A stretch of DNA of 64,000 nucleotides from Massalongia carnosa (lineage: Eukaryota): positions 930,001 to 994,000 of the forward strand of contig OZ287067.1 of the NCBI GenBank assembly GCA_965645245.1. The letters are read 5' to 3'. Made by a program: the position numbers and the translations under genes. Under the pieces are notes generated by a model. That model searched no databases. It was given only the letters and a program-made list of their open reading frames with translations, and had not been told where the DNA came from. Shown piece by piece: positions 24 to 50,069 of the stretch; position 1 is the stretch's first letter; each line of letters starts with the position of its first letter.

Positions 24-416
24 TGTTACGACCCTAGTAGGGATAGGACATCCTACTATGGATCGAACAGTTAAACCGTTCTGGGTTTGGACCCAGCGGG
101 AAGCTCACCTGGCTCACTGGTGAGCAAGGCGAGCTGGATAGCTCACCTGGCTCACTGACGAGCAGAGCGAGCAGGTGCTCATCGAGCTCACGAGCGAGCA
201 GAGTGAGCAAGAACTATATAAGTAGCGAAGATTCTCTTATGAAAGCTTCGTGTTCAATTCTCTTTATCATCTTAACTTCATAGTTACAATCTACTGCATT
301 GACGATTGTTCTCATTTACGTGAAGCTATTCTCGTTGCATCTGACGAACACTACAGATCGCTCTATATAAGATCAAACATTTCTCGCGTTTGAAACATCG
401 AAGAAGACGCGTAGCA
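24..416 (+). repeat. A 5' LTR
   Basis: Aligns with 49677-50069; TATATAA near 216; followed by a self-priming site and the gag ATG at 435. Confidence 0.9.
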
Positions 417-434
417 CTTTGAACATTTTTAAAG

Positions 435-1761
435 ATGTCTGTATCAGATCAACGAACTTTTACTTCAAGCATCATTGACAACACTCAACATTAAACAACG
501 ATTATCGATGACGACAAAATCAAAATCAACAAATCTGACGTATATCACGAAGATCGTAATGAACTGAACGATTGATTCACACAGATAAACATTTACTTTA
601 TTTTTAATAATGTTTCAACAGCAAAGAAAACTTTATTCGCATCAATCTTTTTTAAAGAAAAAATCGAAAAATGATTCAAATCATTTCTGCGCAAACATTT
701 AAATGATGACGAAAATCTCGAACATGTAATCGCGCGTTATGATTGTTTCAAGATCGAAATTCGAAGAATCTTTGAAATCTTTAATGAAGAAAAAACAGCG
801 AAAAGAACAATACAACATTTGCAACAACGAACGTCTGCGACGAAATATGCAGCACGATTTCAAAAACAAGTCAATTTAATGGAATGAAACGACGCAGCTT
901 TAATGATCATGTATAAGAAAAATCTTAAAAACAATGTCAAGAATGAATTTATGAAATGAAGCGAAGACATAAACAGTTTCAAATTCTTGATGAAAATCGC
1001 GATCGAATTCGACGACAAGCTTTACGAACGTGTCATGAAAAAACGTTACAACGATTCACGCAGAAATGCGAGCATTTTTGCGAAATCAGTTGATTATCGC
1101 AGAAAAGAATCACATTTCAGAAATAATATCGATAATTACGATATCACGTTTATGAAATTGAATTCGACACAACGACGCAAGAAGATCAACTCTAAAAGAA
1201 ATAAAAAAAACAATAAAAACAACAAAACGTGTTATTCATGTGACAAATCGAATCATTTCGCGAAAAATTGTCGATCAAAAAACTTAATGCAACGACGACA
1301 GATCAATGTTACATTGAAGAAAGATTCTGATGCATGAAAAAAAATAAAAAAGAAGAAAATCGCAAGAAACATCGAGAATTTTTTGAATTTCAGCACAGAT
1401 GACGAATACTTTCATGTGAAAATTCGAAAAAAATTACTCGAAATGCTCAATGAAAAAAAATCACACGAGACATCTGCGACGACAACGCAATTGAACGAAA
1501 CAATCAAAACGACGATTAAATCATCAACATCGTATTTTAAACAAGAGAATCAAGACGAATGTGAATGAATCGAATTAAAACGACAGCAGTTCGACGAAAT
1601 GATTGCAGAATTGAATCGAATGAACAGAATTTCTTGAATATGAAATATGTTCAATCAATTCGAAAAAATTTTCGAAAAACGCATGTTCGAGCGCGACTCT
1701 CAATTAAAAGAAATAATTGAAAAAACATTGAAAAGCACAATCTCGCAAACAAGTAATATTT
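435..1761 (+). pseudogene. gag: A gag remnant (continues at about 20127-20325)
   Basis: ATG 435 is in frame with ORFs 987 and 1383; degenerate zinc knuckle CYSCDKSNHFAKNC; many TGA stops at probable Trp codons. Confidence 0.85.
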
Positions 1762-2335
1762 TGTTGAATATTCAACTCCTACCAGTACTGTCATGAAATG
1801 CCTCCGACCTCACCACGTGCCTCTATCACGTGCCTTGATCTGATGACTACTCACGGACGTCGTGCCATGCCTTCGGGACCCTCATATCATTCTTCGAATT
1901 CGCCGATTACTGATCATTAATCAGCCTCGCATTGATGTTTGATGTCATGGAGTGACTGGGCACCTGCCAGTTAGTTCATTGAATCAACCTTAGCTGCTTG
2001 AACGAAGAACTAGCCGGTTAGCCGATCCGAAAGGAACTAAGCTTAATCCGGTTCAGTCAGGGCAAAGGTAAGTGTTCCGACTATCAATAGTGTCATGGCG
2101 ATAGTTTCATGCTAGGGACTTGGGGAAATTGGATCAACGGCTGGGTTGGGACTAGTTCCGTTCGCCAGAGTCTTATACTCGCCCACGTTGGATTTTCTGA
2201 TTCTTTTCTCCTTGTCGAACGTCTTGTCCACCTAGCTAGACAATCAAGTAACACGTTTGCACCACCTGAATTCCTACCTGACCTCGCACCGTGACACTAC
2301 GTTCGACCTGCCTATTCACCTGGTGCATCACCAAC

Positions 2336-3487
2336 ATGTCCATCAACCTCGACCCCCCTACCTCCGTTTCCAGCGCCGACGAACTGAGAACTGCCGTGCA
2401 GCAACAGCCACAGGCATGGCTCGAGTTCCTTCTTCGCGTCACCAACTTCTCGGCCAATGCTCAGGAACTTATCACCACTTTAGAGACCGACAAAGCAACT
2501 GCACTATCTTCCCTTGAGCAGGTTAACATCACTCTGTCCGAGAATGCAATCACCATGGCCGCTGGACAAGCTGTCATAGACGAACTTCGCACCAATCTGA
2601 TCGATGCCTCGCAGTCTAAGTCACATCGTTCTACCAAACATCCGGACCCATCTTCCTTTGGTGGCGATAAGGCAGAACTTCGGGGATGGATGACGCAACT
2701 CCGAATAAAGCTGAACATCAACAAGGACCACTATCCCACCGAGCAAAGCAAGCTCGCTTATGCACTAAGCCGCTTGAAGGAGAGAGCATTGGAACAACTG
2801 CAGCCGTACCTGGAAAAAGATGGAAATATCGCTCTTGTCGATATGGAAGCGTTTTATACAAAATTGCAATTGGCCTTCGGTGACCCCGATAGAAAAGCGA
2901 CAGCACAAAGGGAACTGCGACAGCTTCGACAAAAGAATAAAGAGTTCTACCTATACCTATCAGATTATCAACGTCTCGTTCCAGACACAGGCTTCGATGA
3001 TGAAGCCAAGCGATCCATTCTCCTAGATGGTCTCAGTGATGAGTTGAAATCTGCTCTCATCACGGTTGACCTACCCCCGTCGTTGGACGACACCATACAA
3101 GTTCTCCAGAAAATTGATAATCGATTCCGTTCCGTCCAGGCCTCAATCCGCAAACCATTTTCATATGGTTCATCTCGCTCTTCCTCCGCCCCGTCCACCC
3201 CGACTACCAAGACCTCTTCCACCTCCACCTTCAGCACTCCCGCTCCTAGGCCCGCAATCACCCCATCCGCAGACACGGACGCCATCCTGTCGACCTCCAG
3301 GCGTCGCGGTCCCATCACCCCGGCGGAAACATCACGCCGCATGAACGAAGGACTATGCATGTACTGTGGAGGATCAGGACATTTCGCCAATTCCTGCCCA
3401 GCCTCCAAGGGAAAACCTAGAGTGAGGACATATGAACTGAGCACGGTGACTTCGGAAGAGGAGGGAAAAGTTCAGTCTTCGGCCTAA
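2336..3487 (+). CDS. gag: D Gag (capsid plus CCHC knuckle CMYCGGSGHFANSC)
   Basis: First ATG after the LTR is in frame with ORF 2291-3487; retrotransposon Gag motifs. Confidence 0.93.
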   Translation: MSINLDPPTSVSSADELRTAVQQQPQAWLEFLLRVTNFSANAQELITTLETDKATALSSLEQVNITLSENAITMAAGQAVIDELRTNLIDASQSKSHRSTKHPDPSSFGGDKAELRGWMTQLRIKLNINKDHYPTEQSKLAYALSRLKERALEQLQPYLEKDGNIALVDMEAFYTKLQLAFGDPDRKATAQRELRQLRQKNKEFYLYLSDYQRLVPDTGFDDEAKRSILLDGLSDELKSALITVDLPPSLDDTIQVLQKIDNRFRSVQASIRKPFSYGSSRSSSAPSTPTTKTSSTSTFSTPAPRPAITPSADTDAILSTSRRRGPITPAETSRRMNEGLCMYCGGSGHFANSCPASKGKPRVRTYELSTVTSEEEGKVQSSA

Positions 3488-3502
3488 GTCGCGGCCGAAG
3501 AC
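3463..3502 (+). promoter_or_regulatory. D -1 ribosomal frameshift signal
   Basis: G_GGA_AAA in gag phase, then a 10-bp stem GTCTTCGGCC/GGCCGAAGAC; the -1 frame is open into pol. Confidence 0.85.
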
Positions 3503-3534
3503 AAAAAGAAACTATTTCGATTTCGGCATTTTCC

Positions 3535-6500
3535 TTGTCCAAAGAACCTCTATCCGAAGAACATTTGGATGGAAGGCATTTGGTTGTGTCTCTTGTTGTT
3601 TCCATAGGAACAATCAGAATCAAGACTTATGCATTGATTGATTGTGGAGCATCTGGATTTGCCTTTGTTGATTCCTCGTTCGCGCACCATCATCGCATAC
3701 CCCTCGCCCTCATGAAGAACCCTCGTATTCTTGAACTCGCAGACGGCCGTCCCGTGTCGTCTGGGAAGCTTACTCACCTCGCCCGTCTGAACCTTGACAT
3801 CGCCTCGCATTCCGAACCCGCTAACCTTCTCGTCACCAGCCTCGGTCACTATCCCATCGTTCTCGGCATTAAATGGCTGCAAATTCACGACGTCAGCATA
3901 CGATGGGCCATGAACTCTCTCACTTTCAACTCACCTTACTGCCGTCAGCACTGTCTTGACAACTCCGAGTCAAACACGGTCATCGGCATAACCAACGTTC
4001 CAGAACTCCGCGCTGAAAAACCCCTCGTCGTTGAAAGCAGCGCTAGTCCCGACTTGACTGCTGCAATCACCGAAGACCCTAGCCCCGAAGCGGTTAGATT
4101 TAACAGGCCCGGCCGGTTAAATCGGCGCGTTAATTCAAAATCGATCGCGATCGCCGCCCCCTCGCCCATCTTGCCTCCGACCTTGCCCGTTTCGCCTATC
4201 TTGCCTTGGACTTCACCCGTCCCGTCCCTGCTCGTTCCGCCGCCGACCCATAAGAATCCACCATTGAGCATATGTATGATAGGGGCAGCCCCCTTTACCC
4301 GTCTAGCGAAGAAGAAGGAGTGTGAACTCTTTACCGTGAACATGAGAGACATTGAACATTCCTTGAACCCTAAGCCGGAAGTTGATCCCGCTACAGTGTT
4401 GCCATCGGAATATCATGAATTTCTTGATGTATTTTCCAAGAAAGAAGCTGATAAACTTCCGGGGCGACGTAGCCATGATCATAAAATTCCGTTGATGAAT
4501 GGAAAGGAACCCACATATGGCCCGTTATATGGCATGAGTCGAGATGAACTGTTAGTTCTACAGAAGTATCTGACGGAAAACCTGAAGAAGGGTTTTATTC
4601 GGTCCAGTTCTTCCCCTGCTGCGTCCCCGGTGTTGTTCGTTAGGAAACCAGGCGGAGGCCTGCGTTTTTGTGTTGATTACAGAGCATTAAATGCGATAAC
4701 GATCAAGAACAGATACCCCCTACCTTTGATCAGAGAAACCTTGGACCGCTTGAGTAAAGCAGTTATCTTTACTAAGTTGGATATTGTCGCGGCCTTCAAC
4801 CGTCTCCGTGTAGCTCATGGAGAGGAATGGAAGACTGCCTTTCGAACACGCTATGGATTATATGAATATCTCGTCATGCCGTTTGGACTCTGTGGAGCCC
4901 CATCTTCGTTTCAGGAGTACATTAATGATGTGCTTCGTGAATATCTAGACATCTTCTGCACCGCGTACATCGATGACATATTGATTTACAGCAATTCCCT
5001 GAAAGAACACAAGGATCATGTGAGAAAAGTGCTGATGGCCTTACAAAAGGCCGGATTACAACTCGACATCTCAAAGTGTGAATTCCATGTCACGGAGACC
5101 ATTTACTTAGGGTTAATAATATCCAAAGATGGTATAAGAATGGACCCTAAGAAAATTGAAACTATTCAGAATTGGAACACCCCCGAGAACCTCAAGGACG
5201 TGCAGGCCTTCATAGGATTCGCGAATTTCTATCGTCGATTTGTCAAGGGTTTCTCTCGTATAGCCGGACCATTGACTGCTATGTCAAAAAAGAAGATACC
5301 ATTCGTATGGACCGATGACTGCGCAAAGGCCTTCGAAGATCTGAAGGCTATGTTCACTAGTGACCTTGTTCTGCTGCATTTTGACCCCGATAAGGAAAGC
5401 GTGGTTGAAACTGACTCTTCCGATTATGTCAATGCCGGAGTCCTCTCACAGTATGATGACGATGGAGTCCTTCGCCCCGTAGCCTTTTTCTCGCGACGTT
5501 TGTCACCCGCGGAGTGCAATTACGAGATTTATGATAAAGAACTATTAGCCATAATACGTGCCTTCGAGGAATGGAGACCAGAACTTCAGGGAGCCGCCTA
5601 CCCGGTCAAGGTAATCACTGATCATAAAAACCTGGAGTATTTCACCACCACCAAGCAGCTAAGCAGGCGACAGGCCCGCTGGGCAGAATATCTCTCACGT
5701 TTCGACTTCAAAATCACGTATCGACCCGGCAAATTAGGCGGAAAACCTGACGCTTTGACTAGAAGATCAGGAGATCTTCCTAAAGAAGGGGACGTGAGAC
5801 TAGAACATCAGAATCAGGTGGTATTAAAACCGCATAATTTTGAACTTCATGCTAACAACGTGCCTCGTGTGACTGACGTGTCCGACTCTGAACCTGACAT
5901 CGCACCTGACATCGCCATTGAACCATCGAATCTCGCCCCTGCCCTCGACTCGGATGACAAATCTATAGACGAACTCATTGATCTAGGATATGAACATGAC
6001 CCCACGCCTAACAAAATCCTGACCCTTCTCCGAAACGGTGCTCGACACAGCAAGGACATCACCCTAGCCGAATGCGAAGACAGGAATGGAAGACTATACT
6101 ACAAGGAAAGGCTTTATGTCCCTGATTGGCATGAACTAAAAATGAGACTATGCAAGGAATATCACGACAGCCCAGTCGCCGGCCATCCAGGCAGGTCTAA
6201 AACATTTAGTCTGATGGCGCGAGACTACTACTGGCCCCGATATCATCAATTCATTGCTCGCTATGTTCAACACTGTCATACATGCTCTCGCAGTAAAGCT
6301 TCCCATTATGCCAAGTACGGAGTGTTAAAACCTTTGCCCGTTCCCCAACAACGATGGAAGGACATATCTATGGATTTCGTTACCGGCCTACCCGAAAGTA
6401 GTGATAAAAACGCCGTGCTAAGCGTTGTTTGTCGACTAACCAAGATGAAGCACTTTATTCCCTGCAGAGAAACCACCGACGCTAAGGCCTTGGCTAGACT

Positions 6501-7443
6501 ATACGTTGAACATGTCTGGAAACTTCATGGCCTACCCGACTCCATTGTGTCGGATCGAGGAGGCCAGTTCATAGCTGACTTTTGGAAAGCACTATGTGAA
6601 CGACTAAGGATCAACAGTCGGCTATCTACGTCGTTTCACCCGGAAACTGACGGTCAAACGGAACGTTATAATGCAGTCATGGAACAATACCTCAGAAGCT
6701 ATGTGTCTTATCAACAAGATGATTGGACCGACTGGCTACCCATGGCTGAGTTCGCTAGTAATAACTCCGACTCCGAGACAACGTCCGTCAGCCCATTCCT
6801 TGCCAACTATGGTTTCCACCCCCGTCTTGGTTTTGAACCTGTTCATCGCGACTCGCCCAATGCACATGTCATTAGCGCTGACGAATTTGCTTTCAAAATG
6901 CAAAGTATCAGTGAACACCTCGGCGACGAAATGCGCCTAGCTCAAGCACGTTACGAAGCATCTGCTAATGCAAGTAGGACCCCGGCTCCTATGTTTCAGA
7001 TCGGTGACGAGGTCTGGTTGGACGCTCGACATATAAAGACCAAACGGCCATCGCGAAAGTTGGACTGGAAAAAGCTTGGAAGGTTCACTATAAAGAAAGT
7101 TGTCAGCAAGTACGCATACAAGTTAGACCTTCCCGCCTCCATGAACGTTCATCCTGTGTTCCATGTCTCCCTCCTAGAACCTGTCTCTCAACAACCCCAC
7201 GTCGGCCACATACCCGCTCCTTCCCCTCCTGTCGAAGTTGAAGGTGAAACGGAGTGGGAGGTCGAGGAAATTTTGGACTCCCGTTTCTTCCGAAGACGTT
7301 TACAGTACCTAATCAAGTGGACTGGTTGGGACGCACCCGACTGGACCGAAGCTAAGGACGTCACCCACTGCTCCGACCTATTGGAAGACTTTCATCGACT
7401 GAGGCCTACCAAGCCCGGTGGTCCTCGCGGAGCTCGGACCTAA
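3535..7443 (+). CDS. pol: D Pol (PR-RT-RNase H-IN-chromodomain), expressed by frameshift
   Basis: LIDCGA protease, YIDD RT, ETDSSDY RNase H, HHCC plus D,D35E integrase, EWEVEEILD chromodomain. Confidence 0.97.
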   Translation: MSKEPLSEEHLDGRHLVVSLVVSIGTIRIKTYALIDCGASGFAFVDSSFAHHHRIPLALMKNPRILELADGRPVSSGKLTHLARLNLDIASHSEPANLLVTSLGHYPIVLGIKWLQIHDVSIRWAMNSLTFNSPYCRQHCLDNSESNTVIGITNVPELRAEKPLVVESSASPDLTAAITEDPSPEAVRFNRPGRLNRRVNSKSIAIAAPSPILPPTLPVSPILPWTSPVPSLLVPPPTHKNPPLSICMIGAAPFTRLAKKKECELFTVNMRDIEHSLNPKPEVDPATVLPSEYHEFLDVFSKKEADKLPGRRSHDHKIPLMNGKEPTYGPLYGMSRDELLVLQKYLTENLKKGFIRSSSSPAASPVLFVRKPGGGLRFCVDYRALNAITIKNRYPLPLIRETLDRLSKAVIFTKLDIVAAFNRLRVAHGEEWKTAFRTRYGLYEYLVMPFGLCGAPSSFQEYINDVLREYLDIFCTAYIDDILIYSNSLKEHKDHVRKVLMALQKAGLQLDISKCEFHVTETIYLGLIISKDGIRMDPKKIETIQNWNTPENLKDVQAFIGFANFYRRFVKGFSRIAGPLTAMSKKKIPFVWTDDCAKAFEDLKAMFTSDLVLLHFDPDKESVVETDSSDYVNAGVLSQYDDDGVLRPVAFFSRRLSPAECNYEIYDKELLAIIRAFEEWRPELQGAAYPVKVITDHKNLEYFTTTKQLSRRQARWAEYLSRFDFKITYRPGKLGGKPDALTRRSGDLPKEGDVRLEHQNQVVLKPHNFELHANNVPRVTDVSDSEPDIAPDIAIEPSNLAPALDSDDKSIDELIDLGYEHDPTPNKILTLLRNGARHSKDITLAECEDRNGRLYYKERLYVPDWHELKMRLCKEYHDSPVAGHPGRSKTFSLMARDYYWPRYHQFIARYVQHCHTCSRSKASHYAKYGVLKPLPVPQQRWKDISMDFVTGLPESSDKNAVLSVVCRLTKMKHFIPCRETTDAKALARLYVEHVWKLHGLPDSIVSDRGGQFIADFWKALCERLRINSRLSTSFHPETDGQTERYNAVMEQYLRSYVSYQQDDWTDWLPMAEFASNNSDSETTSVSPFLANYGFHPRLGFEPVHRDSPNAHVISADEFAFKMQSISEHLGDEMRLAQARYEASANASRTPAPMFQIGDEVWLDARHIKTKRPSRKLDWKKLGRFTIKKVVSKYAYKLDLPASMNVHPVFHVSLLEPVSQQPHVGHIPAPSPPVEVEGETEWEVEEILDSRFFRRRLQYLIKWTGWDAPDWTEAKDVTHCSDLLEDFHRLRPTKPGGPRGART

Positions 7444-8172
7444 AAGGGGAGCTGGTGTCATGGAGTGACTGGGCACCTGCCAGTTAGTTCATTGAATCAA
7501 CCTTAGCTGCTTGAACGAAGAACTAGCCGGTTAGCCGATCCGAAAGGAACTAAGCTTAATCCGGTTCAGTCAGGGCAAAGGTAAGTGTTCCGACTATCAA
7601 TAGTGTCATGGCGATAGTTTCATGCTAGGGACTTGGGGAAATTGGATCAACGGCTGGGTTGGGACTAGTTCCGTTCGCCAGAGTCTTATACTCGCCCACG
7701 TTGGATTTTCTGATTCTTTTCTCCTTGTCGAACGTCTTGTCCACCTAGCTAGACAATCAAGTAACACGTTTGCACCACCTGAATTCCTACCTGACCTCGC
7801 ACCGTGACATTTGACATCTCCCGTCTCCTCGCTGACCCCATCGTGCTTATTGCCGCTATAATGCCCCTCATTCATCATCGCACTGACTAGACATCATTCG
7901 CCGCCACCCTAGAAAGATGAATATGGGAGGACAAAGATATAAGAAAGAAGTCGAATCATGGAAGTTCTGATTCTTTGTCGAACGTCTTGAATAGCCAACC
8001 TAGCCTAGCCTAGATTCATAGCTATAGACTCAATCAATAAGCTTGACCATCAACCCACCTTGCCTTTGCCCTTGCCCTCGACCTGATTTCGTGACATTAC
8101 GTTCGACCAAGATTCAAAAGTGCCTTCCATAGCATTTTCCCTCATCTCCCTTTATCTCATTCCCCCTCAATC

Positions 8173-9315
8173 ATGTCTTCAGCAGAAGAGAACCTCTCCG
8201 AGCTGGATAAGCGTATTCGATTCATTCAGGAACGTCTTCAGGCAGACCCTCAGCAATTCCTGAGTCAAATGGACAACCTAGAAGCCGAAGTAAACCAACT
8301 TCGCAACAATGCCAATACCCCTTCTATTTCCGAGCCCATACCTATCTCAAATCCACCCCCCCCTACCTTGGATCCGCAAATCATGGCCATGATGCAGCTG
8401 CTCCTGGCGTCAAAAAACTCCCTCATCCGCTCCGAAAAGCTCCCGGACATCACGGAGTATGAGGGCGAAGAAGTCAAGCTGGATGCGTGGGAGCAGTCCC
8501 TGATTCAAAGAATGCATGTCAACAATGATCGATACCCGTTCGATCAAGCCAAAATTGCCTATGCCGAAAGCCGACTCACCATAGGCAAAAAGGCTCATAA
8601 CCTAATGAATGCGTACAGGGTCGATGGCCTTTGCGTACTAACCTCATTTGCTGAATGGCGATCAGCCCTCCGCCGCGCATGCGGAAATCCCTACGAGCAG
8701 GAGGATGCTCGCAAATACCTTCGCGATATCCTCAAACAGGGAAGTAGTAGCTTCGAGGAGTACTACAACCTTTTTGCGCAGAAAAAAGACCGGTCCAAGA
8801 TGGAAGATGCCAGCCTGATCGATGCCATGAAGGCAAATGTGAATTATTCAACCCAGACCGCAGCCCTAATGTATAGGGTCCCCGGAACCCAAAGGCAACC
8901 AACCACCTTCGACGAGCACGTCACCATGTGGTTGGAGACAGATCGTGGCCTTCGGCAGATCCGCCACATTGCCCCAAAGGCGAACACCACCACTATCACC
9001 CCGACACCGAAAAAGCCAAACCCGTTATCAGCACTTCCCCCGACAGTCGCTCCCGCTGCCAAAGCACCTGTCGCTTCTCCCGCCTCCCCTGCGCTGCTCA
9101 TTGGCGACCCCATGGACCTAAGCTCTGCCATGGCAGCGGTGAAAGGCCAATCGCTCAAAACCGAGGGGGTCCGCAAAATCTGCGAAGACTGGAAGTTGTG
9201 TTTCTACTGCAAATTGCAGCATCCAGGGAAGTCAGCAACTGACTGTCCCAACAAGCGAACCAACCTTCGGAGCATGGAGCTCGAAGCCCCTGATATTGAT
9301 CAGGGAAAAGCCTAG
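8173..9315 (+). CDS. gag: B1 Gag
   Basis: 380-aa ORF after the LTR/PBS; knuckle-like CFYCKLQHPGKSATDC. Confidence 0.93.
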   Translation: MSSAEENLSELDKRIRFIQERLQADPQQFLSQMDNLEAEVNQLRNNANTPSISEPIPISNPPPPTLDPQIMAMMQLLLASKNSLIRSEKLPDITEYEGEEVKLDAWEQSLIQRMHVNNDRYPFDQAKIAYAESRLTIGKKAHNLMNAYRVDGLCVLTSFAEWRSALRRACGNPYEQEDARKYLRDILKQGSSSFEEYYNLFAQKKDRSKMEDASLIDAMKANVNYSTQTAALMYRVPGTQRQPTTFDEHVTMWLETDRGLRQIRHIAPKANTTTITPTPKKPNPLSALPPTVAPAAKAPVASPASPALLIGDPMDLSSAMAAVKGQSLKTEGVRKICEDWKLCFYCKLQHPGKSATDCPNKRTNLRSMELEAPDIDQGKA

Positions 9316-9343
9316 TCTCTGCACATCGTCGCGTGCAGGGACT
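9303..9343 (+). promoter_or_regulatory. B1 -1 frameshift signal
   Basis: G_GGA_AAA, then an 11-bp stem AGTCTCTGCAC/GTGCAGGGACT (one G-U pair); pol is in the -1 frame. Confidence 0.85.
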
Positions 9344-14507: not shown

Positions 14508-14519
14508 GGTTATGAGCCC
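14508..14519 (+). promoter_or_regulatory. C1 primer-binding site (Ty5/copia-type, initiator tRNA-Met fragment)
   Basis: GGTTATGAGCCC directly after the LTR; matches the anticodon-arm PBS type known from copia and Ty5. Confidence 0.85.
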
Positions 14520-15062: not shown

Positions 15063-15314
15063 CAAGTGATAGATAAAAGTTCACTAGGATACAAGCCGAT
15101 GATAGGTCAAAGTTCATCAGGTTACAATCAAGCCACCAAGTGATAGATAAAATTTCACTAGGATAGAAGCCGATGATAGATCAAAGTTCATCAGGTTACA
15201 ATCAAGCCACCAAGTGATAGGTAAAAGTTCACTAGGATACAAGCCGATGATAGATCAAAGTTCATCAGACTACAATCAAGCCACCAAGTGTTAGACAAAT
15301 TTTCACTAGGATAT
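15063..15314 (+). repeat. 74-bp tandem array (about 3.4 copies) in the C1 leader
   Basis: Units start at 15063, 15137, 15211 and 15285 (CAAGTGATAG...CAAGCCAC). Confidence 0.92.
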
Positions 15315-16446: not shown

Positions 16447-16458
16447 CTCACAAAGGTC

Positions 16459-36415: not shown

Positions 36416-36766
36416 TGTAGCACGTCGACCTAGATAGAAATCTAATAGGGACTATGTACGAAAACTAGTAAGATGAAGAAAGAAAGCTATGTACAGATCG
36501 CCGGTTAGTAAACACTCATACCCGTGCTAAGCCTAATGCAGGTTTTCATCACCGTCGTTGAACTGCTCATACCACGCGTGTTAATAATGTCGCTACAAGC
36601 AGTGCTAAATCCGTTTTCGGTTAGATAAGGTGAATAGCACTACGTCATTTGCTGCCTGAGGTTAGAGCGTTGTAATCCGTGACATTACCCCCTTCTTTAG
36701 ATCGCGAATCACCTGATCGCGATTAGCGCCGTTCTTGTCAGGTGACGTAATTCCCGTTGACTGTTG

Positions 36767-40522: not shown

Positions 40523-40566
40523 AAGAGGTTTATCATCGTCATCTCCACTCGCGTCTTCGAGGGAGA

Positions 40567-41843
40567 TCAGTCTTTTTTTGACTTCGGCTCAACATCTAAC
40601 TCGTTAATGATGGCTGTCATCTTTGATTTCTTTTTAGGACAGTCCCTTGAGGGATGTCCGACCTCCTTGCAATTGAAGCACTTCCCTTCCCTGCTCAACC
40701 GCTCCCGTTCCGACTCCGATAGATAGGATCCTACGGTCCAGGACGACAAGGTCGATGGCGATGAAGGGGCACGAGACTCGGTGCGAGCATTTGGTGCCAC
40801 ATAGGTTTTGCTTTCGGTGGTAGCGGTAGGGGTGTTCGCCGGGACCACTACACTGGTTGGTTTTTTTCCTTCGGCAAAGCGTTCCATCCTAGCCTTGCTA
40901 CGATCCACATCCTTCAGAGCCTGATACATGCGCTGGCAACGCTGAGCGAACGCATATAGGTCGGTTGGTTCGTGATCGCCGGTGGCTAGCTGACGGCGCA
41001 TATCTAGGTTGAGCTTGTGTTTCAACTCACCGATAGGGTAGCCTCATTGTGATCCAACTCGGCGGCCAAACGCTGAAACTCCGCCCAAAAGGTATTGAAG
41101 TCCTTTTGACCCTGTCGCAGAGAACGGAATAGGTTCATGGCAGTCTGTTTGCGGTTCGGATCTCCATAAATTCGTTCCAAATGATCAAACATTTCCTCTG
41201 CAGTAAGAAAAGGTTTGATAGCATTTTTTCGGAGACGAGGTTCCAAATGGCCCATAGCCTCTCCGCCGACTCGGTTTTCCACATAGGCCTTTTTAAATAG
41301 CTCGGTAGGCATATGGTCTTCATTAGCTGCTAATTTGCTGCGCATTTTAGTCAACCAATGATCGATACTCGGTTCTTTTCCATCGATAAAAACCGGTGGG
41401 TCGGGAAGTTTCATCGACTTCCATAAAGATTCTTCGCTCTGATTGGATCGTGCAGGGGAGCCCTGCAGGTCATGTGGAGGTGGAAATGGTGGTGGTGCAT
41501 TACTCCCTGCAGGTGCAGTAGCTGCGGCCATCCGCCGAGCCTCTTCAAGTTCTTCCTTCTGGTATTCAATCATACCTGCTTGGCGATTGATTTTGATCTG
41601 ACTATCTTCTAAACTAAGCACAAGCTTATTATGTTCCACCACGACCTCCTCATAGTCTGACTTCATGTCTCGTATTATAGCCAAAACTGTTTCTGCATCC
41701 TCCTGCACCCAGTGCCGAAGATGTTGTACTGTTTCTATCCTCCATGGTGAGTCAGCCCCGGGGCCTTCTTCACCGATGTCTATGGGCGGGATGAGAGACT
41801 CCCGTTGATAGTAGGTGGGTGTTTCGTTCGCGGATCTAGCCAT
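40567..41843 (-). pseudogene. gag: G Gag with an apparent 1-bp deletion near 41033
   Basis: ORFs 41022-41843 and 40567-41025 form one Gag (knuckle CFNCKEVGHPSRDC) if one base is restored. Confidence 0.85.
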
Positions 41844-42908
41844 TTCTATCGCTCTTCCTTACTCGGCTCTGTTGAGTATAGTCCAGTTTCGTTCGTGTTC
41901 GGATTGTTATCGGATCTACTATCATATGCTGAGGATAGTCCTAGGATTTCGGATCTGGTTCGTGTTTCGGGTGCTGACTGTGTAAGAGTCAGACCTGGCG
42001 ATTATCAGACACCAGGCCTAGGGATATGTGACAATGTGAAGACACTAATGATTTGCTATACTAATATACTAAAAGAAGTATGTAGGTAAAGCGGAAGACT
42101 AATCGTTGAAGATTGCATCTCCCTCGAGCAGCCTCCTTATATACCCGGACCGAAGCCCTTGACCCTCTGGGCCCTTGATACTGTAACTATCTTGACCGCC
42201 CATTACTCCTACCGGATAAGCCGGCTAAACACTCTGCTGACTGCATCGTGGACACTGTGCTGACTGTATCGTGGACACTGTGCTGACTGTATCGTACCAT
42301 CCGCTCACTAATCGTACGAGCATCCTCGTATATCTCGATCGCTCGTACTATACTCTCGGCAGTAGATACCAGCCGCGTAACGCAGACCAACTGCTTTTCC
42401 ATATGACTAAGCCTAGCCGTAGAACTAAGCCCCGCTTAGTTAGCTTAGCCCTTATTCCTTCTATGCCCTGACAATTGCCTCCTCTCCTATAGTGCTGGTC
42501 CTCCAGCACGTACAGTACTCGAACGCGGAAGGGAGTGTGTAGGGACGTGATAGAAGATGTCGTGTAGATAGCAAGTTTGTTGTGTAGAAAGCGCGAATAC
42601 CTGGCGCTTGACGTAGGTAGATGTAAATATCACTAGCTTCTCGGTAATGCTGGGTCGCCGATGCCGCTCCAAGCGCTAGAAGTAGCGGAGAAGGGGACGA
42701 TGGCGATTATCAGCAGAGATCCGAGCTCGGTAACGCTAGCGTTGGTGGTTTGTTGATTTAGGTGAAGACGGTGAGGAGTACGAGACTGTTGTCTCCGAAA
42801 GCTCCTCCAGCGAGAGTCTCAAGGAAGAAAAGGGTGATGAGGAGTCGGACGAGGAAGTAGAAGGTTCCGATGGTGATGAGATGGCGAATAAGAAGTGTTT
42901 CGCTGGAT

Positions 42909-45900
42909 TCAGCGAGTAACCTGTAGTTTCTTGATTCGCCTGCGCTTTGCTTTCGGCTTTGCATCGAAATCCTGCTTCAGTTCTAAGGCTCCATCCAGAT
43001 CTTTCTCTGGTACCCACTCATCATATTCTTCAGGGTATCCTACCCATTTTACCTTATAGAATATTTCCCCTTTCTCAGACCTTCTACCTATAATTTCTTC
43101 CACTTCCCATTCCTGTTCATCGTTAATAATTTCAGGTGGGGGTAGAAACGGTATATGCTCTTGACCATCTCTTCGCTTGTAAGGTTCTAGGTAAGAGACA
43201 TGAAAGACCGGGTGAATTCTATAAGTCGTAGGAAGAGCAAGACGATATGCCTGCTTGCCGACTGCTTCTAGAATGCGAAAAGGACCTAAAAACTTATGTG
43301 AAAGTTTTTTACTAGGCCTTTTTTGTTTTAGATTCTTGGCAGATAACATTACCAAGTCCCCTTCATTGAAATCTTTCTCAAGATGTTTCTTGTTGTAGTA
43401 CTTGGCCTGCGCTTCGGATACGCTTTTCCAGCGTGCCTCTAAAGAATATCTGAACTCGTGTAATTGCTTTACTCGTTCTTTCGCAGCGGGCACCCTCTCC
43501 ACAGCGATGTCGTCCCCGACTTCGTAGCGAATCTCCGGGTTATAGCCGTACATACAATAAAAGGGGCTGCACCCAAGCGTACTTTGATAACTGACTTGGT
43601 AGACAAATTGTGCTAGGGGCAATAGTGCCACCCAGTTGGATTGATTGTCAGTGCAGTAAACTCTCAAATAGTGTTCAAGGGTCTGGTTTTGTCGTTCGGT
43701 TTGGCCATCAGTTTGAGGGTGAAAGGCCGTGCTAAGCCGGCGTTTCGTCTTTAAATGAAAACAAATTTCTGACCAGTACTCACTGGTAAAGACCGACCCT
43801 CTATCCGATACTATGCCCTCAGGAGCGCCGAACTGTAATACTACCGATTCAAACAGAATTTCTGCAAGGTCCACTGCATTGATTTTTTTCGTAACCGGGA
43901 TGTATAGCGCCATTTTGGTATATCTATCCACAATTACTAGGCACGAGTCATAAACCCGGCCGAAACGCTTGCTAGGTGGAAACCCAGTTATGAAATCCAT
44001 AGTGATTTCTTTCCAAGGACCGGAAGGACGTGGAAGCGATTGCATAACCCCGTAAGGTCGGTGCCTAGGCGCCTTCGTCCTTTGACAAATGTCGCAGGAT
44101 TCCGTGTACTTCTTCACAGTCTTGTTAAGTCCTTTCCAATAGTATTTGCGGGTAAGCAACTCAGCTGTTTTCTCCGCACCAAAATGACCCGCGAGCTCGT
44201 CGTCATGATGACGCCGCAACAGCTCCGCACGAATAGATTCTTCATCGGGCACGTAAATTCTGCCACGATGATTGAGAAGATCATTGCTATCTATAGTCCA
44301 AATTGCTTCGGGGGAGCGACCACCCTTGCGCTTCAAAGACTTAGCAACGGTCTCTCGCCTGCTAGACACGAATGCGTCTTTCCCCTGTAGCGCCTTGATG
44401 AGTTCAAGCACTGACTTGGAAACACTTTCCAAAGGCTTTTCTTCATCTGATAAGGCAACAGCTACAGCCCGGGGAATACATTGCGTCAAGCCGACTTCAA
44501 AAGTATCACTCTCTTCGTCAAGAGAAGTAATTGATTTAGAGGTTTCACCCTCTAAATTCTCCAGGGGTTCAATCCCGGACGAAGCTATCTTTGAGCGAAG
44601 ATCATACCTAAGTGCGGCAAGCACCGTACGAATCCCCGGCGTATAACCTACGCATAAGGAATCTATTTTGCTCAGCTTCTTTTGAAGAGTAGGCAACAAT
44701 CTCGTCACCTCGGTGTTGATGCTCTGATAATCAGGGCGCCTAGACGGTGCATCGGCAGGATTGGTCTTTCCCGAGCGATGCATGATTACGAAATCATAAG
44801 CGGCTAATTTCATAGCCCATCGCGCTTGCCGACCACTCAACACCTTAATATTCATAAAACCCCTCAAATTGTTGTGGTCTGTCAGGACCTCAACGGGGTG
44901 CAGGCTACCCTCCAGGTAATGCCTCCAGTGTTTAAAACACATCACAATGGCCAGCAACTCTTGATCATGGGTTTCATAGTTGCGCTCGGCCGGTATCATC
45001 TTCCGCGAGTAGAAAGCGACGGGATGCCATTGCCCATCCTTCTGCAACTGGGAGATAATGCCAGAGATTCCGAAATCCGATGCATCGGTCTCTAGGCGAA
45101 TGAGCAGTTCTGGATCGAAGTGAACCAAGATGGGCGCGCCCTGAAAGGCTTCTTTCAGCTTGCTAAACGCTTCCGCTCCTTCGGCCGTAAGATAAAAAGT
45201 ACCCCTTTTTATCCCAGCCTGCATGCCTTTCAGCATGTCAGTCAATGGCCTAGTGATTTGAGAATAATGACGTATGAAACGTCGATAGAAATTGGCGAAT
45301 CCTAGAAAGACCTGAATGTCTCGAAAGGACTGAAGTGCAGGCCAATCCCGCACGGTTTCAACCCGGCGTGGATCCATGGAGATACCATCGCTGCTAATGA
45401 TAAACCCTAGATATTCCACGGCCGCAGCAAAGAACTCGCACTTTTTAAGATTTGCATAGAGATCGTGTTTCCTTAGACGACGTAACACCTCTTTAACATG
45501 CTCCACATGGCTGGTTCTATCTTTGGAAAATACCAATATATCGTCCAGATAGACTACGCAGAAAACATCCACGATCCCAGATAAAGCTTTATTGATGTAA
45601 GCTTGAAAAGTTGCAGGGGCGTTGGCTAATCCAAAAGGCATAACCATATACTCGTAGTGTCCGTAACGGGATCGAAATGCCGTCTTCCACTCGTCGCCCT
45701 TGCGGATTCGGAGACGATGATAAGCATCTCGCAAATCCATTTTGGTAAAATAGGAACACCCGTTTAACTGATCCAGTATCTGCGTGATAAGAGGGAGCGG
45801 ATGACGATTCTTTTTGGTCACCTTATTCAATCCTCGATAGTCAACGCAGAGGCGCAGAGTACCGTCCTTCTTAGGCACAAATAGTATTGGTGCACCTGCA

Positions 45901-46592
45901 GAACTGGTGGAGTGCCGGATCCAACCCTTCGCCAGGGCGTCGTCAAGATATTCCCGAAGAGTCTTAAGCTCCGTATTCGATAAGTTGTATAAAGGACCAT
46001 AAGGTGGATCACCGCCTTCTAAATCGATAGCGTGGTCACAGTCCTTGTGCGTAGCTAATTGATTGGCTCTGTCCTTAGAAAAAACATCCTGGAATTCAGC
46101 AAATTCCACAGGTATCCCCTGCGTTTCGTTGGTGTTCCGGCTGTTGTTCTCATCAACAGCGCCAACATTAACAGGTTGTCTTTCGGAAGAAGGTGCAATG
46201 GGTTGAGCCACTATAGCATAGAGTGGTGCCCCGGAATCCAGGGTCTTCGCAAACTGTTTAGGCTTGCACAACTCGAACATATCAGACTGAAAGCCATAAC
46301 GCCAGCGCTTCGCTCCATAATCGATTACGATACCCAGCTGTTTGAGACCAGGGAGACCCAACACCAAGTCAGGGCCCTGTTTGTCAATTGCGTAAAACAC
46401 GCTGGTAAAGGTGCGCTGTCGTTCCCAAGTATCCTCGAGAGCCATTACTACCTCATAAGCTTCATAGCAGTAAACCTCTTTACCATCCATGAATTGAGGA
46501 GCAGGTAGTTCGCTTTCAATAGGTCTAAGATCTGAAGCGACGGCGAATCCCTGATTAATCACATTAATCTCGGCTGCTCCATCAAGCAACAC
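42909..46592 (-). CDS. pol: H Pol (PR-RT-RH-IN-chromodomain)
   Basis: YLDD, ETDASDF, HHCC/DDE, EWEVEEII; the -1 frame is open from G_GGA_AAA at 46673-46667. Confidence 0.96.
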   Translation of the reverse strand: MLLDGAAEINVINQGFAVASDLRPIESELPAPQFMDGKEVYCYEAYEVVMALEDTWERQRTFTSVFYAIDKQGPDLVLGLPGLKQLGIVIDYGAKRWRYGFQSDMFELCKPKQFAKTLDSGAPLYAIVAQPIAPSSERQPVNVGAVDENNSRNTNETQGIPVEFAEFQDVFSKDRANQLATHKDCDHAIDLEGGDPPYGPLYNLSNTELKTLREYLDDALAKGWIRHSTSSAGAPILFVPKKDGTLRLCVDYRGLNKVTKKNRHPLPLITQILDQLNGCSYFTKMDLRDAYHRLRIRKGDEWKTAFRSRYGHYEYMVMPFGLANAPATFQAYINKALSGIVDVFCVVYLDDILVFSKDRTSHVEHVKEVLRRLRKHDLYANLKKCEFFAAAVEYLGFIISSDGISMDPRRVETVRDWPALQSFRDIQVFLGFANFYRRFIRHYSQITRPLTDMLKGMQAGIKRGTFYLTAEGAEAFSKLKEAFQGAPILVHFDPELLIRLETDASDFGISGIISQLQKDGQWHPVAFYSRKMIPAERNYETHDQELLAIVMCFKHWRHYLEGSLHPVEVLTDHNNLRGFMNIKVLSGRQARWAMKLAAYDFVIMHRSGKTNPADAPSRRPDYQSINTEVTRLLPTLQKKLSKIDSLCVGYTPGIRTVLAALRYDLRSKIASSGIEPLENLEGETSKSITSLDEESDTFEVGLTQCIPRAVAVALSDEEKPLESVSKSVLELIKALQGKDAFVSSRRETVAKSLKRKGGRSPEAIWTIDSNDLLNHRGRIYVPDEESIRAELLRRHHDDELAGHFGAEKTAELLTRKYYWKGLNKTVKKYTESCDICQRTKAPRHRPYGVMQSLPRPSGPWKEITMDFITGFPPSKRFGRVYDSCLVIVDRYTKMALYIPVTKKINAVDLAEILFESVVLQFGAPEGIVSDRGSVFTSEYWSEICFHLKTKRRLSTAFHPQTDGQTERQNQTLEHYLRVYCTDNQSNWVALLPLAQFVYQVSYQSTLGCSPFYCMYGYNPEIRYEVGDDIAVERVPAAKERVKQLHEFRYSLEARWKSVSEAQAKYYNKKHLEKDFNEGDLVMLSAKNLKQKRPSKKLSHKFLGPFRILEAVGKQAYRLALPTTYRIHPVFHVSYLEPYKRRDGQEHIPFLPPPEIINDEQEWEVEEIIGRRSEKGEIFYKVKWVGYPEEYDEWVPEKDLDGALELKQDFDAKPKAKRRRIKKLQVTR

Positions 46593-46657
46593 TGTCGCCG
46601 GGTATTTTTGGCCTCCGCTCGTTATAGTCCCCTTAGGAATTAGGCTTGGCTCGCTTT

Positions 46658-47899
46658 CTACTGATCTTTTCCCTCCATCGGCTGGCGAGCTTTTCGTGGA
46701 GGTTTGGCTTTTCCCGACTTTGCGACGGCGTTCACACCGTGCTTCGGCTCCTTGTCGTCTTTAGGAGGGTTGGGACACTTGTTGGCGTAGTGACCCTGTT
46801 CTCCGCAGCGATAACATGTCACCTCGTCGGTACTTTCCTTTGTCTCAGCATGCTTTCTTTTCTGACCCCTTTTACCGTCTTTCGTAGGTTTTGGTTTGTC
46901 AGTGTCCTTTATCTCCTCGTTCCTCTTATCTCTATGTGATTTAGTGCGAGGGGGGTGAGAACCATTTGGACGCTCATGCTTCGACGTCGTTAAGACATCG
47001 TTTTCTCTTTTCTGATTGTTTTCCAGCCTACTGGCCAGAGTCACCAGAGCTTCTCTAGTCCTTGGAATATTCTGATAGTTGCCTATAGCTGCTCTAATAG
47101 ACGGCCGCAACTTAGTAAACAGATGAGTCGCTCTTTGTTCTTCGGTATAGGAGGGCAACTGGTCCTCGAGGCTACTCAAGTGCGCCTCGAAAGCTCTTAC
47201 CGTTTGCTTCTCTCCTTGCTTGGCTTCGGCAAATAATTGGGCCATATGCAGACCTCGATTAACTGGGTCCTCGACAATATTTAACAAGAATTTCAAGTAC
47301 TCTTCGAAGGTATAATTGTGCATTTCACCGTCTGCCTCATATCGATGCCAAGCTTCCTTAGGCTCCCCTTCCAGCGATTGCATTGCGAAAGCGATCTTGG
47401 ATTCATCATCTGGGAAGTCCTCTTTTGCCACGCGAAACGCCACTCTGCAGTTCCGCTCATAATCCAGATGTTCCTTGACCGTTTTTCCATGATAGGGACT
47501 GACTTTCTCGGGTCTAGCAGCGCGTCTCCTGTAAACAACAACAGGTACTGACTGGCTACTCGTCATCTCTACATCGTCGTCAGAACGAGGGTTAATGGCT
47601 CCTCTCATTACCGGTTCCTTGGATGATCCGGTAGGGTTTGGAGGTTTCGAAGGCTTTTGAGTTTGTTCTTGCAGTTGCTCAATACTGGCTTTCAAATTCC
47701 TCAGACGTACTTCCTTCTTAAGTTCGCTACGCCTGCGCTCAGCTTGCGCTATCTGTTCGTCCAACGTCAGGGGTTGAATGGGTTCGACTACTTTTTCCAT
47801 TGGGGTCAGGGCTCCTCTTCCAGGGCCCTCAGAATCCGAAAGTTCTTCGATCCGCTCTTCCGGCATCATGGTATCAGAGGCAACTTCTTGCGCGGACAT
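46658..47899 (-). CDS. gag: H Gag
   Basis: 413 aa; CYRCGEQGHYANKC knuckle. Confidence 0.94.
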   Translation of the reverse strand: MSAQEVASDTMMPEERIEELSDSEGPGRGALTPMEKVVEPIQPLTLDEQIAQAERRRSELKKEVRLRNLKASIEQLQEQTQKPSKPPNPTGSSKEPVMRGAINPRSDDDVEMTSSQSVPVVVYRRRAARPEKVSPYHGKTVKEHLDYERNCRVAFRVAKEDFPDDESKIAFAMQSLEGEPKEAWHRYEADGEMHNYTFEEYLKFLLNIVEDPVNRGLHMAQLFAEAKQGEKQTVRAFEAHLSSLEDQLPSYTEEQRATHLFTKLRPSIRAAIGNYQNIPRTREALVTLASRLENNQKRENDVLTTSKHERPNGSHPPRTKSHRDKRNEEIKDTDKPKPTKDGKRGQKRKHAETKESTDEVTCYRCGEQGHYANKCPNPPKDDKEPKHGVNAVAKSGKAKPPRKARQPMEGKDQ

Positions 47900-48831
47900 G
47901 GCGGGACGATAGTGTATAGAAGGTGTATAAATGTGTCAACGGATCGTCACTCCTTGAAGGATTGAACGATTAGAATTGTAAGAGTCAGACCTGGCGATTA
48001 TCAGACACCAGGCCTAGGGATATGTGACAATGTGAAGACACTAATGATTTGCTATACTAATATACTAAAAGAAGTATGTAGGTAAAGCGGAAGACTAATC
48101 GTTGAAGATTGCATCTCCCTCGAGCAGCCTCCTTATATACCCGGACCGAAGCCCTTGACCCTCTGGGCCCTTGATACTGTAACTATCTTGACCGCCCATT
48201 ACTCCTACCGGATAAGCCGGCTAAACACTCTGCTGACTGCATCGTGGACACTGTGCTGACTGTATCGTGGACACTGTGCTGACTGTATCGTACCATCCGC
48301 TCACTAATCGTACGAGCATCCTCGTATATCTCGATCGCTCGTACTATACTCTCGGCAGTAGATACCAGCCGCGTAACGCAGACCAACTGCTTTTCCATAT
48401 GACTAAGCCTAGCCGTAGAACTAAGCCCCGCTTAGTTAGCTTAGCCCTTATTCCTTCTATGCCCTGACAGACTGACTGACGGACTGACATACAGTTGGGT
48501 GGATTGTTTTATATCCTCCACAAGGGATAGCAAGATTTAGAGTGATCTTACTAGTTGTGTAGCACGTCGACCTAGATAGAAATCTAATAGGGACTATGTA
48601 CGAAAACTAGTAAGATGAAGAAAGAAAGCTATGTACAGATCGCCGGTTAGTAAACACTCATACCCGTGCTAAGCCTAATGCAGGTTTTCATCACCGTCGT
48701 TGAACTGCTCATACCACGCGTGTTAATAATGTCGCTACAAGCAGTGCTAAATCCGTTTTCGGTTAGATAAGGTGAATAGCACTACGTCATTTGCTGCCTG
48801 AGGTTAGAGCGTTGTAATCCGTGACACTTGA

Positions 48832-49180
48832 TCATGTCAAGATCGATTCGTTTTTCATCAAAGCACAAAAAAAAGCGATCAATTATGAATTGAAGCTGTC
48901 TCAAAACGTCAAAATACATTCAATATTTCATATATCGTTATTGAAATCAATCGACTCGAGTACGTTTATACAGAAAACATTTCATTACGAATTTCAAAAA
49001 GAAAACGAATTCGAAGTCGAGAAGATTCTAACACAGCAAAATCAGAAATATTTAATGAAGTGAAAGAGATATTTTACATCGAAAAACACATGAAAATCAT
49101 TTAAGAATCTTGAGAATTGTCAACAACGTTTGAGAAATTTTCGACAAGAACAGAAAAAGATGTTATCGAACGTCAAAAGT
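48832..49180 (+). pseudogene. pol: A integrase tail and chromodomain remnant
   Basis: KIHSIFHISLLK..EFEVEKIL..KYLMK* reading; end coordinate is approximate. Confidence 0.85.
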
Positions 49181-49595
49181 CGTCGAACAATTTCTTTATA
49201 AATTGAGACAGATCAGAAAAAACTTCGTTCTTCGTTTCAACATTATTCGCTGATAATTCTTGTGCGAAACAGAAAATCTTTTCAGCAATTTTCGATTTTG
49301 TATAAATTAACGTTTTGCGAAAACGAGTCATTTTCGTTAACGCATGAGCAAGTTTCTTTTCAATTAAATTAAGATCGAATTTCAACTTGTTTTGAATGCG
49401 ATTCAAATTTTCTCACGAAGCGTCAACACAGAAGCGATCACGACGAACACATTTCGCACATTTGAGATGATTCTTCATTCTCACGCAGACGATCGAAAAA
49501 GAAAAACAAAAAAAACAAACAATGATCGTCGAATCATCGTTTCGAATAATAATGTTGTAAAAACGCAAGCGATTGTGAATTTTGAAAAATGTCAT
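49101..49595 (-). pseudogene. Antisense accessory ORF of A: Zn2Cys6-like cluster plus probable coiled coil
   Basis: CFFC-x6-C-x8-CAKC-x6-C; ORFs 49413-49595 and 49173-49406 share a frame, broken by TGA codons. Confidence 0.72.
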
Positions 49596-49676
49596 GATGC
49601 GATGAGATGAAAATTCATCGAGAAATTATCTTCGTTATAAAACGCTAAAAACTAACGTTAAAAAAAAAGAAAATCG

Positions 49677-50069
49677 TGTTACGATTTTAATAAAAATAGA
49701 ACATTTTACTATGAATCGAACAATTAAATCGTTCTGAATTTGAATTCAGCGAAAAGCTCATCTGATTCATTGATGAGCAAGACGAGTTGAATAATTCATT
49801 TGATTCACTGACGAGCAGAGCGAGCAGATGTTCATCGAGCTCACGAGCGAGCAGAATGAGCAAGAACTATATAAATAGCGAAGATTCTCTTATGAAAGCT
49901 TCGTGTTCAATTCTTTCTATCATCTTAATTTCATAGTTACAATCTACTGCATTGACGATTGTTCTCATCTACGTGAAGCTATTCTCGTTGCATCTGACGA
50001 ACACTACAGACCGCTCTATATAAGATCAAATACTTCTCGCGTCTGAGACATCAAAGAAGACGCGTAGCA
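49677..50069 (+). repeat. A 3' LTR
   Basis: Matches 24-416 with many C>T and G>A changes; preceded by an A-rich, probably mutated PPT. Confidence 0.92.

Follow-up and report, generated by a model that had tools for sequence, protein, structure and literature searches.

The window, a 64-kb stretch (64,000 nt) of Massalongia carnosa DNA (assembly GCA_965645245.1, contig OZ287067.1, positions 930,001 to 994,000 of the forward strand, numbered here from its first letter), is a nest of long terminal repeat (LTR) retrotransposons. Its oldest component is a Ty3/Gypsy element, A, which lies in five pieces between younger insertions, and a second old Ty3/Gypsy element, I, stands beyond a short spacer. 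Both carry dense transitions resembling the repeat-induced point mutation (RIP) of fungi. An ungapped comparison of the two A LTRs revealed differences at 48 of 394 nt, 25 of them C/T and 23 A/G, without a single transversion or gap. In the first ~135 nt, for which a preliminary description of this DNA had claimed about 34 differences, we counted exactly 34. The I LTRs differ at 30 of 317 sites, again by transitions alone (30/30; C/T to A/G, 13:17), and 25 of these lie in a CpY or RpG context (Y, pyrimidine; R, purine). Only 7 of the 78 differences in the two old LTR pairs were out of context (2 in A, 5 in I).

Because the first 200 nt of the A 5′ LTR are unmutated, this copy can be used as the state before mutation, and changes in the 3′ LTR were counted against it with both strands pooled. 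All cytosines in CpC were changed (23/23), as were 15 of 39 in CpT, compared with 0/26 in CpA and 0/21 in CpG (Fisher tests: CpY versus CpR, p = 5e-13; CpC versus CpT, p = 3e-7). The 3′ neighbour decides the outcome: ACC (8/8), CCC (5/5), GCC (3/3) and TCC (7/7) were changed throughout, versus none of the CCA (0/8), TCA (0/9) or TCG (0/10) sites. The primary target, CpC, is saturated, whereas CpT is secondary, with ~10–40% of its sites changed depending on place. C>T at CpC and CpT together with G>A at GpG and ApG, the pattern proposed earlier, is what the alignments contain, with the two strands interleaved. No wider motif was found that separates changed from unchanged CpT, identical heptamers occurring in both states. 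A strand asymmetry in the remaining CpT relative to ApG (ratio 1.87 in A and 0.83 in I; 0.84–1.27 in young elements) was judged not robust, because the I value lies within the young range and the A value above it. As controls, the young copies D and F, which differ by 318 transitions and 150 transversions, show no preference for any context, and the young copies C and C2 differ by 3 transitions and 5 transversions.

The same preference has reshaped the composition of both elements. Compared with expectation from present base composition, A retains 6 CC+GG dinucleotides instead of 288 (6,075 nt) and I 11 instead of 295 (5,895 nt), so that across the ~12 kb of the two elements 17 are left where ~583 are predicted. 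Counted in 200-nt windows, CC+GG is zero almost everywhere in A and I and ~20–30 in young elements. CT+AG is down by roughly 45%, and TT, AA and AT are up. CpG, in contrast, stands at 52.5 and 57.0 per kb in A and I versus 51–59 in young Gypsy elements, and CpA, TpG and TpA are at the level of the latter as well, which bears out the claimed sparing of CpA and CpG. The old elements had also been described as rich in TCGA and ACGA; these words are indeed 2.6–4.3 times enriched, and TCGA alone 2.6–3.5 times. Both classical RIP indices nevertheless return 'no RIP': TpA/ApT is 0.47 and 0.37, and (CpA+TpG)/(ApC+GpT) is 1.38 and 1.42, against published thresholds of ≥0.89 and ≤1.03, respectively (PMC3897900). 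As CpG, CpA and TpA remain normal, these indices are blind to the process.

Conversion of Trp codons to TGA, another feature of the preliminary description, is evident in the coding sequences. Under the standard code, I contains one frame of at least 150 aa; when TGA is read as Trp, frames of 547, 597, 209 and 317 aa reopen. Likewise, the A gag frame starting at 495 is interrupted by 13 TGA codons and opens only when these are taken as Trp. Database searches with such read-through translations recovered unmutated relatives of I (P0001 and P0002, 54% identity) and of A (P0137 and P0138, 53–56% identity), from which the direction of change was determined using only alignment columns where both references agree (P0001 = P0002 for I; P0137 = P0138 for A). 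In I, 446 of 1,030 columns differ, and C>T/G>A accounts for 343 of these, the reverse direction for 10; in A, the corresponding numbers are 159 and 6 of 218 differences. Inferred C>T sites are followed by a pyrimidine in 167/172 cases in I and 55/59 in A, and inferred G>A sites are preceded by a purine in 197/221 and 106/116. Since transitions preserve purine/pyrimidine class, this reading of the context is independent of the neighbour's own history. Conserved Pro residues were kept in 0/65 cases in I and 0/28 in A, Gly in 0/54 and 0/25, and Trp in 1/18 and 0/9. Residues whose codons are predicted to be immune to CpY mutation (F, I, K, N, Y, M, H, Q, C) were retained at 88% in I and 84% in A; this set contains His, Gln, Cys and Met, all of them expected targets of a CpA-type process.

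Table 1. Elements and other features of the 64-kb window, with mutation state. Expected CC/GG counts are from base composition.
Feature	Coordinates	Strand	Description
Element A, Ty3/Gypsy	five pieces: 24-1764, 20122-20528, 28049-28611, 34096-36415, 48827-50069	+	LTRs 24-416 and 49677-50069
A 5′ LTR, outer part (U3 up to TATATAAG at 213-220)	24-222	+	unmutated; CC/GG density normal
A 5′ LTR, inner part	223-416	+	mutated, CC/GG all gone; 10 sites differ from 3′ LTR
A gag region	417-1764	+	mutated; 1 CC/GG in 223-1764
Young inserts	1765-20121	+	unmutated; Gypsy C 1765-14239; Gypsy B 1943-7809, nested in C 5′ LTR; Copia D 14237-20121
A internal piece, between young D and E	20122-20528	+	mutated; 0 CC/GG, 21 expected
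Young Gypsy E	20529-28048	+	unmutated; 1,030-nt LTRs 100% identical; target-site duplication TACGA
A internal piece, between young E and F	28049-28611	+	mutated; 1 CC/GG, 27 expected
Young Copia F	28612-34095	-	unmutated
A reverse transcriptase-RNase H-integrase region	34096-36415	+	mutated, with a few frame shifts; 3 CC/GG, 93 expected
Young Gypsy G	36416-48826	-	unmutated; Gypsy H nested at 41981-48469; both LTR pairs 100% identical; target-site duplications CTTGA and GACTG
A 3′ end with 3′ LTR (49677-50069)	48827-50069	+	mutated over full length; 1 CC/GG, 67 expected
Spacer between A and I, 127 nt	50070-50196	.	mutated; 2 CC/GG, 8.4 expected
Element I, Ty3/Gypsy	50197-57609	-	mutated throughout; 317-nt LTRs 50197-50513 and 57293-57609
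Insert in I	52274-53791		unmutated; ~1.5 kb; includes family-E solo LTR 52509-53538
Right flank, moderately repeated	57610-58588	.	partly mutated; 41 CC/GG, 73 expected, 3 in first 259 nt

The mutated domain is bounded within the window. On the left, none of the 109 cytosines in 24–222 is changed relative to the other LTR, and 23 CC/GG lie within 32–174; on the right, the effect weakens with distance from I and fades over the flank, beyond which lies a second copy of Gypsy C (C2). All sequence in the window is repetitive. An open frame at 57687–58397 in the right flank was rejected as a gene, being not gene-like and part of a sequence that contig depth marks as a repeat. The LTR pairs of the young elements are 99.6–100% identical, and clean 5-bp target-site duplications flank each of the five young insertions inspected for them (E, G, H, the solo E LTR and B). 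The insert in I consists of a 483-nt high-copy repeat that is itself host to the family-E solo LTR, and contigs of two public sequencing runs, X1 and X2, show the corresponding empty site, without the 1,035-nt solo LTR. Two young elements contain tandem repeats, an array of ~13–14 units of 50–51 nt in Copia F (32965–33655) and three 74-nt units near the 5′ end of Copia D (15063–15313). Among the named distant matches of family A are Talaromyces, Sordaria, Scytalidium and one plant record; those of Copia D are mostly from plants, at ~30% identity. Neighbours in a sequence atlas point weakly to Basidiomycota, the phylum being recorded for only 3 of them.

Contigs of four public runs were compared with positions 48827–58700 of the window. 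Contigs of X2, which may be the source sample, had 0 differences over 48827–49905, 50147–52302, 53774–54122 and 54097–57893, and X4, from another study, reproduced the mutated locus in six short contigs, also with 0 differences. A copy that diverges by ~10% is present in X1. These data bear on whether the pattern could have arisen artificially during sequencing or assembly, such as through a chimeric join at ~222. The abrupt switch inside the A 5′ LTR, which lies outside the compared region, would fit such a join, but contigs of two runs reproduce 48827–57893 exactly, the codon-level signature is coherent and it recurs in unrelated public assemblies, making an artefact extremely improbable. 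Paralogous X2 contigs have C where the window has T at 134 positions and G where it has A at 126, with 44 C>T, 49 G>A and 69 transversions besides. Among the 34 of 825 variant positions that were checked for context, window A versus G had a 5′ purine in 11/11 cases and window T versus C a 3′ pyrimidine in 16/17. Three A-family proteins (P0139, P0140 and P0143) carry differing subsets of the same replacements, with Pro kept in 14/43, 1/40 and 2/42 columns, indicating that copies were hit to different degrees. A search of metagenome contigs for further A copies with a degenerate LTR pattern gave 0 matches. In one X2 contig, the end of an A LTR is joined directly to sequence resembling 58601 onwards, which suggests another locus where both repeats abut.

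Relics of the same type appear in public protein and metagenome data. Among 316 fetched proteins, 16 are Gypsy polyproteins of 794–1,706 aa with zero Pro and zero Gly (for example P0008, P0025, P0032, P0048, P0053 and P0173), in which Trp, His, Gln, Cys and Met occur at ordinary levels; these proteins probably derive from hypermutated relics that were called with TGA as Trp. In word-indexed searches, which favour like composition, 33/105 and 12/75 matches of the mutated queries had <1% Pro+Gly, compared with 0/104 for an unmutated Copia query, and an index-free search returned 6 such low-Pro/Gly matches among the best 150. Starting from P0173, we reached at least 584 loci with CC/GG-free Gypsy copies, spread over a series of public metagenome assemblies; 80 of these loci were kept for analysis. 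Of the 909 kb in these loci, 843 kb are CC/GG-poor, with 0.5 and 0.7 per kb versus 45.6 and 41.9 outside, and the domain edges are sharp to within ~100 nt. Entire 15-kb loci in this set are free of CC/GG. At L074:8101–10732, ~1 kb from the sharp edge of a CC/GG-free domain, lies an intact Argonaute gene with ArgoN, PAZ, Mid and Piwi domains; its two frames, 10 nt apart, suggest a short intron.

Among 44 near-full-length pol stretches from the metagenome loci, the best copies (GC content ~0.33–0.36) contain 13–21 in-frame TGA codons and almost no TGG (1 kept in 3 copies), and 7 copies have no other stop; copies of lower GC content have more stops. The 44 repeat pairs of these loci, 2 of which are not LTRs and which exclude loci below 9 kb or lacking a suitable repeat, differ by 1,466 transitions versus 107 transversions. 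A context table over all 44 aligned pol copies was set aside because it is confounded by subfamily divergence. In a closer subset of 16 copies, CpG decay is also active in that organism. One metagenome pair showed changes in 19/19 CpC, 70/121 CpG, 64/158 CpT and 33/136 CpA.

In our judgement, the old part of the window was probably shaped by a RIP-like, domain-confined hypermutation of duplex DNA with the rule CpC > CpT >> CpA, CpG. A and I would have been struck in place, after integrating, by a burst of double-strand C:G-to-T:A hypermutation that would also have reached the 127-nt spacer and extended a few hundred bases into the right flank. The machinery would read the base 3′ of the cytosine, converting every CpC and ~10–40% of CpT while essentially sparing CpA and CpG; in coding sequence this would erase Pro (CCN) and Gly (GGN) codons and turn Trp into TGA. 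Such a process would amount to RIP-type genome-defence mutagenesis restricted to the repeat domain, CpC-first and nearly inverting the target order of Neurospora. That duplex DNA was hit in place is suggested by the differences between the LTRs within A and within I, by C>T and G>A changes interleaved at a spacing of a few bases, by the mutated spacer and flank, by the fading right edge of the domain and by paralogues that are mutated differently. Repeats may have been the trigger, as the preliminary description proposed, and the enzyme may be a RID-like cytosine methyltransferase or deaminase with an altered +1 preference.

Alternatively, the copies could have arrived dead, if an APOBEC-like single-strand nucleic-acid deaminase, packaged or cytoplasmic, edited retrotransposon RNA, cDNA or both during reverse transcription. 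Frames that are nearly intact apart from TGA would agree with such pre-integration editing, as would the inner parts of the two A LTRs, near-identical in their partial CpT pattern, and the same saturated state in many copies. However, C>T and G>A are equally frequent (25 versus 23) and interleaved within a few bases, and the 38 differences in the outer 200 nt of the A LTRs comprise 20 C>T and 18 G>A in one LTR, whereas under the standard model of reverse transcription the intermediates allow LTR-specific changes on one strand only. The I LTRs, too, differ at 30 sites in both directions, and the spacer, which is not element sequence, and the flank are mutated as well. Moreover, known AID/APOBEC enzymes read the 5′ neighbour, and here the 3′ neighbour sets the rule (ACC 8/8, CCA 0/8). 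We therefore consider editing before integration unlikely.

The order of events can be read from the nested insertions. Because the six young LTR insertions are untouched, the mutational burst predates them, and because their LTRs are 99.6–100% identical, the change must have been fast rather than slow. Repeat targets were available, since the copies of family C are 99.85% identical over 5,191 nt and unmutated; the insert with the family-E solo LTR has a contig depth several hundred times the single-copy level. That the young elements are untouched despite such repeats and depth indicates a burst, with no action at the locus since. The absence of transversions and the mere 7 out-of-context differences in the old LTR pairs further indicate that the whole history is recent. 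The same numbers weigh on passive decay, that is, dense CpC/CpT methylation of heterochromatic repeats followed by slow spontaneous deamination of 5-methylcytosine. In favour of such decay, fungal DIM-2 methylates non-CG sites, with a preference for CpT according to PMC13297926. Against this, CpC loss is 100%, yet the 78 LTR differences include 0 transversions and only 7 out-of-context changes, and frames are otherwise intact. In known systems, methylation is usually lowest at CpC, and we regard slow decay as very unlikely.

Several observations nonetheless weigh against a RIP-like burst in place. Six young families, some of very high copy number, are unmutated inside the mutated domain, so the process must be episodic, lost or selective rather than constitutive RIP. 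The window is without single-copy DNA, everything in it being repetitive. A lacks a recognizable target-site duplication (CTTTG versus GTGTA), so that its two LTRs may stem from different copies that recombined; for A, such an origin would weaken the case for mutation after integration, while the arguments from I, the spacer and the flank would be unaffected. Over their inner 194 nt, the A LTRs nearly share one CpT pattern, with 7 sites that differ and 27 kept in both. As independent hits at 38% would give more differences, this points to lower intensity, to some of the mutation preceding LTR duplication or to homogenization of the LTRs. Finally, the metagenome parallel comes from a different organism or organisms, with a best match to the window of 74–79% over <200 nt, and its second-tier contexts differ from those of the window; CpC-first is the common feature.

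The TATA-like TATATAAG at 213–220, a likely promoter, adjoins the apparent unmutated/mutated border (~222) in the A 5′ LTR. The idea that only transcribed DNA is mutated was rejected as a general rule, as both I LTRs are mutated over their whole length; it also fails in the metagenome set, where 41 of 44 repeat pairs have 0–4 CC/GG in both copies. A milder edge effect may exist: metagenome loci L043 and L029 have 10 and 9 CC/GG in the 5′ LTR versus 1 and 4 in the 3′ LTR.

The signature shares much with RIP as it operates in Neurospora and other Pezizomycotina, where it depends on RID and DIM-2. RIP of the Neurospora type acts before meiosis and is confined to duplicated DNA, leaving single-copy sequence alone except for short leakage. 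In both, only C:G-to-T:A transitions occur, on both strands, the 3′ base selects the target, mutation is dense to saturating in a bounded repeat tract with some spill to neighbours, and transposon genes are killed. Dependence on the +1 neighbour is typical of RIP and of DNA cytosine methyltransferases, whereas dependence on the −1 neighbour is typical of AID/APOBEC. The order of targets, however, is nearly reversed: Neurospora RIP prefers CpA (PMC3318451, PMC12543289), in contrast to CpC 23/23 > CpT 15/39 >> CpA 0/26 and CpG 0/21 here. Furthermore, RIP mutates all long similar repeats at the sexual cycle, in contrast to the six young families of the window.

RIP-like contexts on record, as far as the cited texts describe them, are CpA in Pezizomycotina, CpG, CpT together with CpA, and TpCpG (PMC4352252, PMC2621366, PMC4014442, PMC3318451). 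CpT accompanies CpA in Botrytis, Sclerotinia and Magnaporthe, for which signatures of CpA, CpT and CpG are given (PMC4352252, Amselem et al. 2015), and CpT changes were also noted by RIPCAL (PMC2621366). These fungi share the CpT target with our elements, but the accessible text of these studies describes no CpC-dominant, CpA-sparing signature. TpCpG hypermutation in Pucciniomycotina (PMC3318451, Horns et al. 2012) is likewise a context-specific, RIP-like C-to-T hypermutation of transposons outside the CpA paradigm. It differs from the present rule, under which TCG is changed in 0/10 cases, CpG per kb is unaltered and TCGA words are enriched. Overall, the open-access literature searched yielded no CpC-dominant RIP-like signature; the preliminary description had called for a literature check on novelty. 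Its judgement that neither Neurospora CpA RIP nor CpG decay nor APOBEC3G editing fits is also supported by the context counts. Decay of 5-methylcytosine at CpG would deplete CpG and raise TpG and CpA, unlike the 52.5 and 57.0 CpG per kb found here. APOBEC3G acts on a single strand, where it deaminates the 3′ C of CC. It resembles the present process in targeting CC and in inactivating retroelements by G-to-A and Trp-to-stop changes, but here both strands carry changes, these fall on the 5′ C (ACCCA to ATTCA), and an element's two LTRs are not alike. More generally, the one-strand bias and 5′-neighbour rule of AID/APOBEC contrast with equal strands and with NCC at 23/23 and CCA at 0/8.

The only match found for the combined CpC and CpT context is the cancer alkylation signature SBS11 (temozolomide), in which C>T at CpC and CpT arises via O6-methylguanine and requires double-stranded DNA (PMC12556801). 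The primary event might accordingly be a guanine lesion instead of cytosine deamination, with duplex DNA acquiring an adduct of the O6-alkylguanine type on the 3′ G of RpG under the same targeting. SBS11 shares the dinucleotide context and the duplex substrate, but it is genome-wide and of low density, unlike the saturating, domain-confined changes here that left later insertions untouched. Environmental alkylation cannot saturate a 12-kb domain and yet spare 24–222 and the later insertions, and we know of no enzyme for locus-confined guanine alkylation. As only SBS11 was found with this context, guanine-directed chemistry stays a minority reading, and we regard it as improbable. A broader but still doubtful proposal, to which we give somewhat more credence, is that of an undescribed genome-defence mutator other than RID/DIM-2, either a duplex-DNA cytosine deaminase or a guanine-directed alkylating activity, with the 5′ C in CpC (the 3′ G in GpG) as its main site of attack. 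Such a mutator would act episodically in several poorly sampled lichen- and metagenome-associated eukaryote lineages, escape CpA-based indices and leave its dead products in protein databases, as long 'proteins' devoid of Pro and Gly.

The best reading of these data is that CpC-first hypermutation is a RIP-like defence that also appears in other public data, with a target rule for which the literature searched gave no precedent among known fungal RIP. A 2025 k-mer survey that covered 1,239 fungal genomes generalized, in its accessible text, that a preference for CpA is common to RIP-like defences (PMC12543289); a CpC-first process that runs to saturation contradicts this. Scans based on RIP indices would overlook such a process, both classical indices shifting the wrong way. 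Genes are killed by removal of Pro, Gly and Trp codons, rather than by stops at Gln and Trp codons via CpA, and gene callers that try TGA as Trp make the relics into full-length 'proteins', an annotation artefact that contaminates protein collections. The sharpness of the rule (23/23 versus 0/47) provides a handle for an enzyme search by comparative genomics and also lets one ask how a cytosine methyltransferase or deaminase reads the +1 base.

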